This document shows positions 35,381 to 35,422 of a DNA stretch of 64,000 nt, one piece after another. A model generated the notes under the pieces. The model had not been told where the DNA came from and did not search any database. It worked only from the letters and a program-made list of their open reading frames with translations. A program made the position numbers and the translations under genes. Source of the DNA: Antedon mediterranea (lineage: Eukaryota; Animalia; Echinodermata); the NCBI RefSeq assembly GCF_964355755.1, contig NC_092671.1:30762304-30826303 (forward strand), read 5' to 3'. The first letter of the stretch is position 1. Each line of letters starts with the position of its first letter.

Positions 35381-35422
<42 letters not shown>
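35381..35422 (+). other. Spacer copy of the 28S helix-69/R2 target site (42 bp); also at 44514-44555 and 63443-63484, deleted form at 53999-54013
   Basis: AGCGCGGGTAAACGGCGGGAGTAACTATGACTCTCTTAAGGT is identical to 28S 33956-33997. Confidence 0.97.

Follow-up and report, generated by a model that had tools for sequence, protein, structure and literature searches.

An rDNA array edge and the architecture of its spacer

The window analyzed here, a stretch of 64,000 nucleotides from Antedon mediterranea (contig NC_092671.1), covers the edge of an rDNA array. Up to approximately position 30007 it consists of AT-rich flank, which is followed by four rDNA units of about 9.1–9.5 kb, the first of which begins within the 18S gene; at 30008 the flank directly meets the middle of this gene. 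The rRNA has the appearance of invertebrate-animal rRNA. Downstream of the large-subunit (LSU) end, the spacer starts with a unique stretch of 117 bp, after which come eleven 9-mers, another unique stretch of 51 bp and a 42-bp copy of 28S sequence; 3′ of this copy follow a 15-bp tail, 28 T residues and a satellite with subrepeats. Positions that carry a sign are counted from the R2 nick, after PMC10499050. The features are, in window coordinates:

33956–33997, plus strand: source of the copy within the unit-1 28S gene, -41 to +1 at the R2 bottom-strand nick (33996/33997)
35114–35230, plus strand: 117-bp unique 3′ spacer, identical in all four units
35231–35329, plus strand: tandem 9-mer repeated eleven times, without differences between the four units
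35330–35380, plus strand: 51-bp unique left flank, identical in all four units; 35337–35377 is also found in sequencing run X9
35381–35422, plus strand: exact copy of the R2 target in the spacer of unit 1, with the upstream motif at 35388–35400 and the nick motif at 35416–35422
35423–35437, plus strand: tail of 15 bp in which 7 nt recur as a direct repeat; site of the unit-2 substitution (+5)
35438–35465, plus strand: run of 28 T 3′ of the copy, in all four units
35494–37737, plus strand: 5-mer satellite blocks alternating with subrepeats of about 290–365 bp
44514–44555, plus strand: exact copy in the spacer of unit 2, with one substitution at +5, just 3′ of the copy
53999–54025, plus strand: remnant in unit 3; a 30-bp deletion has taken away the nick motif together with some of the upstream motif
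63443–63484, plus strand: exact copy in the spacer of unit 4

The spacer subrepeats are duplicates of sequence located 5′ of the likely Pol I start and may be spacer-promoter-like. An 18-bp element that resembles spacer promoters occurs between 35830 and 37914 of unit 1 in six spacer copies and a last, promoter-proximal copy; units 2 and 3 have seven copies each, the last included. The 5-mer unit of the satellite is the reverse complement of 28S +1 to +5 past the R2 nick, a match that is probably due to chance (about 1%, by arithmetic). We take the same unit to be similar to invertebrate telomere repeats as well.

The spacer contains an exact copy of the R2 target

The 42 bp at 35381–35422 in the spacer of unit 1 are identical to 28S positions 33956–33997 (BLAST E ~1e-16), and the same source 42-mer is present in the 28S genes of the other three units (starting at 43089, 52574, and 62018, all on the plus strand). 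The copy starts 268 bp past the Rfam LSU end, i.e., 1385 bp past the 28S nick, and an exact version with the orientation of its source was found in three of the four spacers. Unit 3 has kept only the first 14–15 bases; 30 bp are missing, which correspond to -27 to +3 or -26 to +4 relative to the nick, and the edges of the deletion share 1 nt of microhomology. An earlier note made from the bare sequence had described the exact identity, the position about 270 bp past the 28S end of units 1, 2, and 4 in a common orientation, the remnant in unit 3 and the extent from -41 to +1 of the R2 site. Our analysis confirmed all of these, the last with the nick placed at 33996/33997. Likewise, the note's statement that the spacer has no further rRNA fragment held in sequence comparisons covering all four spacers, ITS1, ITS2 and the 30-kb flank.

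After masking of the copy, the longest exact match between spacer and gene was 12 nt, and all 30 shuffles gave matches of 11–15 nt. A background within the range of the shuffles, together with the BLAST E value, shows that the copy is not a chance match. The 15-bp tail contains a 7-nt direct repeat of -5 to +2 with a 12-bp period (chance 0.6%) and is likely a junction or repair footprint. Past +1, the earlier note had read downstream 28S sequence with a 1-nt insertion. This likeness was not significant in units 1 and 4 (P 0.07–0.12) and was marginal in unit 2 (P 0.02–0.04), and we rejected the tail as mutated downstream 28S.

The spacer copy is a predicted cleavable R2 site

In Bombyx, the R2 target is defined by an upstream motif (RUM, -34 to -22) and a nick motif (RASIN, -6 to +1); the enzyme requires T at +1, tolerates other single changes at +2 to +5 and does not need +6 to +37 (PMC10499050). 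The avian R2 reads nearby bases of the same upstream region (PMC12222951). All 13 upstream-motif bases of the spacer copy are as in 28S. Under the Bombyx rule, all three intact copies match five of the seven upstream consensus positions and all four key nick bases, score the same as the 28S site itself and have the correct motif spacing. The nick motif with T at +1 is present in all three and absent from unit 3, and the 3′ end of the copy coincides with this last base essential for Bombyx R2. Since both Bombyx motifs are present and the copy reaches the last essential base, we predict from the sequence that the spacer site is a cleavable R2 target and not a blocked one, and the divergence past +1 would not block Bombyx R2. 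The link to R2 drawn in the earlier note thus stands, whereas the decoy function proposed there stays hypothetical: none of the four spacer sites and none of the four 28S sites in the window is occupied by an R2 insertion, a search of the window turned up no R2 element, and nothing in the data points to selection for keeping the copy.

The note had also linked the copy to homing endonucleases. The 15-mer from -11 to +4, which we take to be the I-PpoI site as given there, has three ungapped mismatches in all three intact copies, and this link is weaker.

For R2 remnants in the flank, 39 of the 48 open frames of at least 70 amino acids were scanned, the remaining nine being repeat copies of scanned ones. 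The scan returned one reverse-transcriptase fragment and one weak transposase match and nothing else, which rules out an R2 remnant among these frames. The broken reverse-transcriptase fragment lies at 11521–11880 (Pfam RVT_1, E 7e-7), and its motifs presumably are those of an APE-type LINE, not of R2. The copy itself as an R2 element or SIDE was rejected as well: the spacer has no long frame, the homopolymer run is T on the sense strand, and downstream 28S sequence is lacking. What lies 3′ of the copy is the 15-bp tail, the T run and the satellite, with no Rfam match to an R2 5′ UTR or ribozyme, and the fold of the 3′ spacer (z 0.65; 73 of 100 shuffles as good) gave us no reason to keep a ribozyme or another stable fold as a candidate.

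Unit differences lie at the cut site

Both differences between the units in the copy and its tail are located at the cut site: the unit-3 deletion ends at +3/+4 and the unit-2 substitution is at +5. Copy and tail have these two events in 57 bp; the remaining unique non-coding rDNA has 7 in 1537 bp (P 0.028, for a region picked afterwards), and the overall figure is 15 in 7182 bp (P 0.007, with the same choice of region). The neighboring 117, 99, 51 and 45 bp are invariant in all four units. The clustering at the nick hints at re-cutting. It is a hint only, because the region was selected after the events had been seen and because unit 2 has an unrelated 360-bp deletion in its 28S gene. This deletion, at 42462–42463, has a few bases of microhomology and lies away from the R2 site; unit 2 is likely non-functional. 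Since it is off the R2 site and the units are at the array edge, deletions here need no nuclease. The identity of copy and 28S does not call for selection, since a recent origin or homogenization suffices and the flanks are invariant, too.

Sequencing runs contain the surrounding spacer

A search of contig-assembled sequencing runs with sampled 31-mers of 34850–35437 listed 24 runs, 20 with part of the region and 14 with at least half of it (11 studies). Runs from the source sample contained 0.86–0.94 of the sampled words and X9, a run with the same organism label but from another sample and study, 0.68. The share was 0.82 in organism B and two further runs and 0.58 in organisms C, D and E, values that are uninformative on the copy itself. 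Word shares cannot show its presence because only 45 of the 498 distinct 31-mers span its junctions, and 234 come from the 28S end by itself. When the left flank was compared with the contigs of four runs, X9 yielded a 52-nt contig at depth 784 that matches 35337–35377 exactly and continues for 11 letters, and X5, X6 and X14 yielded no contig, possibly as an effect of filtering. If the 11 letters follow the window, the contig would stop near -34, before the position of about 35410 expected of a single intact allele with 31-letter words, and such an early stop would imply that the sample has an additional allele.

Search for R2 target look-alikes in other rDNA spacers

A 29-nt pattern over the right junction of the copy had no match in metagenome contigs, and the exact copy was absent from 14 LSU-end loci comprising 20,152 bp past the LSU end, most of them with partial spacers. 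All 14 are distant, with 76–93% identity in the 3′ part of 28S. From a second set of 48 loci (47 listed of about 250, plus one), 19 were dropped as too short, and among the loci listed none of the 29 further spacers contains a look-alike; we take most of these to be of plant, fungal or protist origin. The 47 loci (L015–L061) are prokaryote genome records with eukaryotic LSU sequence, likely by contamination, and about 250 such stretches are estimated for the whole collection. Locus L029 was left out of the control pool because it contains a piece of 28S.

One of the 14 loci, L009 (1681–1972, minus strand; Ga0193984_1000863), has five subrepeats of about 52–56 bp directly past the LSU end. Its rRNA is nematode-like in appearance, as far as we can judge. 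In exact register with the R2 target, the subrepeats match 11–12 of the 13 upstream-motif bases and four to five of the five bases at -7 to -3, and 2–5 of the 14 bases between them. In local alignment, none of 1000 shuffles and two of 256 other 28S 42-mers reached such a score. Among the control windows, 0 of 1148 scored as high when the geometry was chosen afterwards; with the geometry pre-set from the paper the number was 400 of 1148 (134 of 1148 for the key bases only), and over all 42 bases it was 281 of 1148. T at +1 is missing from all five repeats. With two of five tests failed, L009 is suggestive of a degenerate R2-target look-alike. The first three subrepeats fold a hairpin near the helix-69 register, with the folding shown for two of them.

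The copy as a proposed relic of an R2 5′ junction

The explanation that fits best, and that we hold with moderate confidence, is that the copy is a relic of an R2 5′ junction, which formed about 1.4 kb 3′ of the nick, lost its element and was then homogenized. A homogenized scar of this kind had been the first alternative in the earlier note, and a route by which it could arise is published (PMC13486585). The front end of an R2 insertion would have joined DNA about 1.4 kb 3′ of the cut, close to where the transcribed region ends, and the join would have yielded the order spacer, 28S -41 to -1, R2 start. A deletion would then have taken out the body of the element, and gene conversion and unequal exchange would have carried the remainder through all repeats. 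R2 protein is predicted to bind and nick the spacer site still, the unit-3 deletion and the changes just past +1 would be scars of cutting and repair, and any diversion of R2 from the gene would be a by-product and not a kept function.

Several reported properties of R2 are relevant here. Many R2 RNAs keep some upstream 28S bases at their start after ribozyme cleavage, with cuts 9–36 nt upstream, and some R2 5′ junctions have direct duplications of 13–28 nt of upstream 28S together with added or templated bases (PMC3774820). When second-strand nicking by avian R2 is weak, the 5′ end is joined to rDNA on the order of 1000 bp downstream, in the Pol I-transcribed zone, which yields target-site duplications of this size; the authors speculate that such kilobase joins are linked to breaks near termination (PMC13486585). 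A downstream join predicts upstream 28S sequence in the same orientation behind 3′ spacer, which matches a copy 1385 bp past the nick. The junction reading is further favored by the 3′ end of the copy, which lies at most 1 bp from the R2 nick in a gene of 3684 bp, by the lack of any other rRNA piece in the spacer, by the match to the Bombyx rule, as good as that of 28S, and by the unit differences at the nick.

Compared with R2 5′ junctions (PMC3774820), the spacer copy is likewise a direct copy of upstream 28S that runs to the insertion site, ending at -1 or +1, and is followed by short duplicated or added bases. In those junctions the 13–28 nt lie directly beside their source, with the element behind them, whereas the spacer copy has 41 nt, lies 1.4 kb from its source with no element behind it, and is array-wide. 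With the avian downstream joins (PMC13486585), it shares a 5′ join about 1 kb past the nick, a transcribed zone and upstream 28S as template; those joins, however, were made by engineered proteins in human cells, and the available text does not describe a relic that is natural, fixed and devoid of the element. The canonical target (PMC10499050) is identical throughout -41 to +1, with the correct spacing and the essential T at +1, but the copy lies in the spacer and not in the gene, is foreign from +2 on and is lost in one unit.

Against the relic, a leader of 40–41 nt lies just outside the 9–36 nt of PMC3774820, the tail is not attributable to an R2 5′ end and its region has no stable fold, and the search of the window did not find an R2 element, with all four 28S and all four spacer sites empty. 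Moreover, kilobase joins come from crippled avian proteins in human cells and not from nature (PMC13486585). If look-alikes such as that of L009 recur in unrelated animals, pure accident would become less satisfying as an explanation.

Alternative explanations

Whatever its origin, the copy could be a selected decoy, kept since it doubles the R2 targets per unit and diverts binding, nicks and insertions into dispensable spacer, so that the 28S gene is spared. We consider this unlikely, although several points speak for it. The copy comprises almost exactly the DNA contacted by R2 (-38 to +1; PMC10499050), and avian R2 pre-bound to unlabeled target no longer acts on labeled target (PMC12222951), which makes a sink biochemically plausible. 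In addition, the unit differences concentrate at the nick, and the L009 spacer subrepeats resemble the R2 motifs in exact register. On the other hand, none of the four spacer sites carries an insertion, the site is lost in one of four units, and a single decoy per unit would at best halve the hits on 28S. Furthermore, the L009 likeness is significant neither with the geometry pre-set from the paper nor over 42 bases, and lacks T at +1, and look-alikes are absent from 13 of the 14 and from all 29 further spacers. In a broader form of the same idea, animal rDNA spacers would repeatedly gain and keep DNA gripped by R2, with fresh, cuttable copies serving as decoys and older ones as pure sponges; this, too, is doubtful. 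The older sponges would have kept the binding motifs and lost the cut base, and L009 is perhaps an example. R2 is reported from animals only (PMC5035012).

A host termination or fork-barrier site, in which a Myb-type motif in the copy acts together with T-rich DNA to stop RNA polymerase I or replication forks, seems to us distinctly improbable. Positions -37 to -31, read as the reverse complement, give the yeast Reb1 heptamer quoted in PMC9531808, and this Reb1-type heptamer is found at 35385 and 35217, downstream of the LSU gene, just as Reb1 and TTF-I sites sit just downstream of the rRNA unit (PMC5368702). Within the window, the 8-mer from -37 to -30 occurs only in 28S, in the copy and at 35217 of the 3′ spacer, and it is retained by unit 3; seven of its eight bases are kept in all five L009 repeats. 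A run of 28 T follows 3′ of the copy. In known terminators, the T-rich release element comes before the protein motif, whereas here the T run lies 3′ of the motif; the extra 8-mer in a 117-bp stretch is weak when picked afterwards, and the end of the copy at the R2 nick is left unexplained. Reb1 and TTF-I sites (PMC5368702, PMC9531808) resemble the copy in their position just past the large-subunit gene, in the Reb1-type heptamer and in the nearby T-rich DNA, but they are not 28S copies and do not end at the cut site of an element. A scan for terminators of the bacterial type, a method not apt for an rDNA spacer, found none. The second 8-mer stands just before the eleven 9-mers, each of which contains a four-base piggyBac-type target (35217–35329). 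Its spacing to the third 9-mer equals the R2 motif spacing plus one base, and the sequences are otherwise unmatched (16 of 42).

We find it even harder to credit that a 28S fragment was captured at a spacer break without R2 reverse transcription, through another nuclease or templated repair. A homing endonuclease or a piggyBac-type transposase are candidate sources of a released fragment, and the same part of 28S is hit by several elements: in L006 (999–1462), L011 and L012 the LSU gene is interrupted by insertions of about 460 bp, likely group I introns. The 7-nt repeat in the tail also resembles templated repair. These insertions are located about 5 bp upstream of the R2 nick, though, while the copy extends to +1, and by arithmetic an end within 1 bp of the nick is expected for about 3 in 3684 random fragments.

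The remaining two readings have little in their favor. As an RNA mimic, proposed in the earlier note as a mimic of helix 69, the copy would be transcribed in the 3′ external spacer and its fold would bind a processing or assembly factor. The copied bases alone do make a 6-bp stem with a 7-nt loop, and the left flank reaches depth 784 in X9, which we guess to be an RNA run but which may be DNA. Nothing was found beyond this hairpin of copied bases: the whole 3′ spacer folds no better than its shuffles, the ends of the copy follow the R2 footprint and not the hairpin, and the hairpin is absent in unit 3, which renders a mimic highly improbable. That an assembler or polisher pasted in the copy, which itself was observed in no read or contig, is hardly credible given the same left junction in all four units with three distinct alleles, the word shares of the source-sample runs and the X9 contig that extends 11 letters past 35377.

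Novelty and implications

R2 junction duplications, downstream joins and spacer homogenization are already known. An array-wide, element-free and predicted-cleavable spacer site as their product appears to be undescribed. Among the titles and beginnings of abstracts that we surveyed, which largely exclude subscription journals and do not extend to supplements, so that older descriptions may exist, no copy of the R2 target in an rDNA spacer is described. The word "decoy" does not occur in PMC10946416 or in bioRxiv 10.1101/2023.02.20.529178, and the available portions of PMC7650587 and PMC12247875 hold nothing further on spacer copies of the target. Two known systems have moved 28S pieces. Mammalian SINE28 (PMC10946416) is, like the copy, based on a short piece of 28S moved by retrotransposition, but is a dispersed element; fish R2 with 28S in its 3′ UTR (PMC5035012) likewise has a retrotransposed 28S piece, but within a mobile element. 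Unlike both, the spacer copy is a fixed part of the rDNA repeat.

According to a 2026 review (PMC13580325), how R2 and its hosts have coexisted in rDNA over hundreds of millions of years is an open question. A second, predicted-cleavable R2 site in each spacer would allow a direct test of this coexistence by comparison of spacer and gene site. If the copy is a relic, it would document in nature the kilobase downstream join, which until now has been seen with engineered R2 only; if it is a kept decoy, it would represent a new form of host control. Should the repeated acquisition of decoys be true, the rDNA repeat would contain a DNA-encoded host defense, or a truce. Tools for R2-based gene insertion or rDNA cutting would meet such copies as additional targets in non-mammalian hosts.

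Further observations at the locus

On the minus strand, the 51-bp left flank (35330–35380) has an open, protein-like frame of 16 residues and may be a captured piece of mRNA. The T run reads as 28 A on that strand and is preceded, by a few bases, by a polyadenylation-like hexamer (35438–35481), a pattern that a very short, reversed retro-insertion would show. In the flank of the array, 14567–23231 contains tandem duplications that are almost perfect, with periods of about 1413 bp and about 1756 bp.
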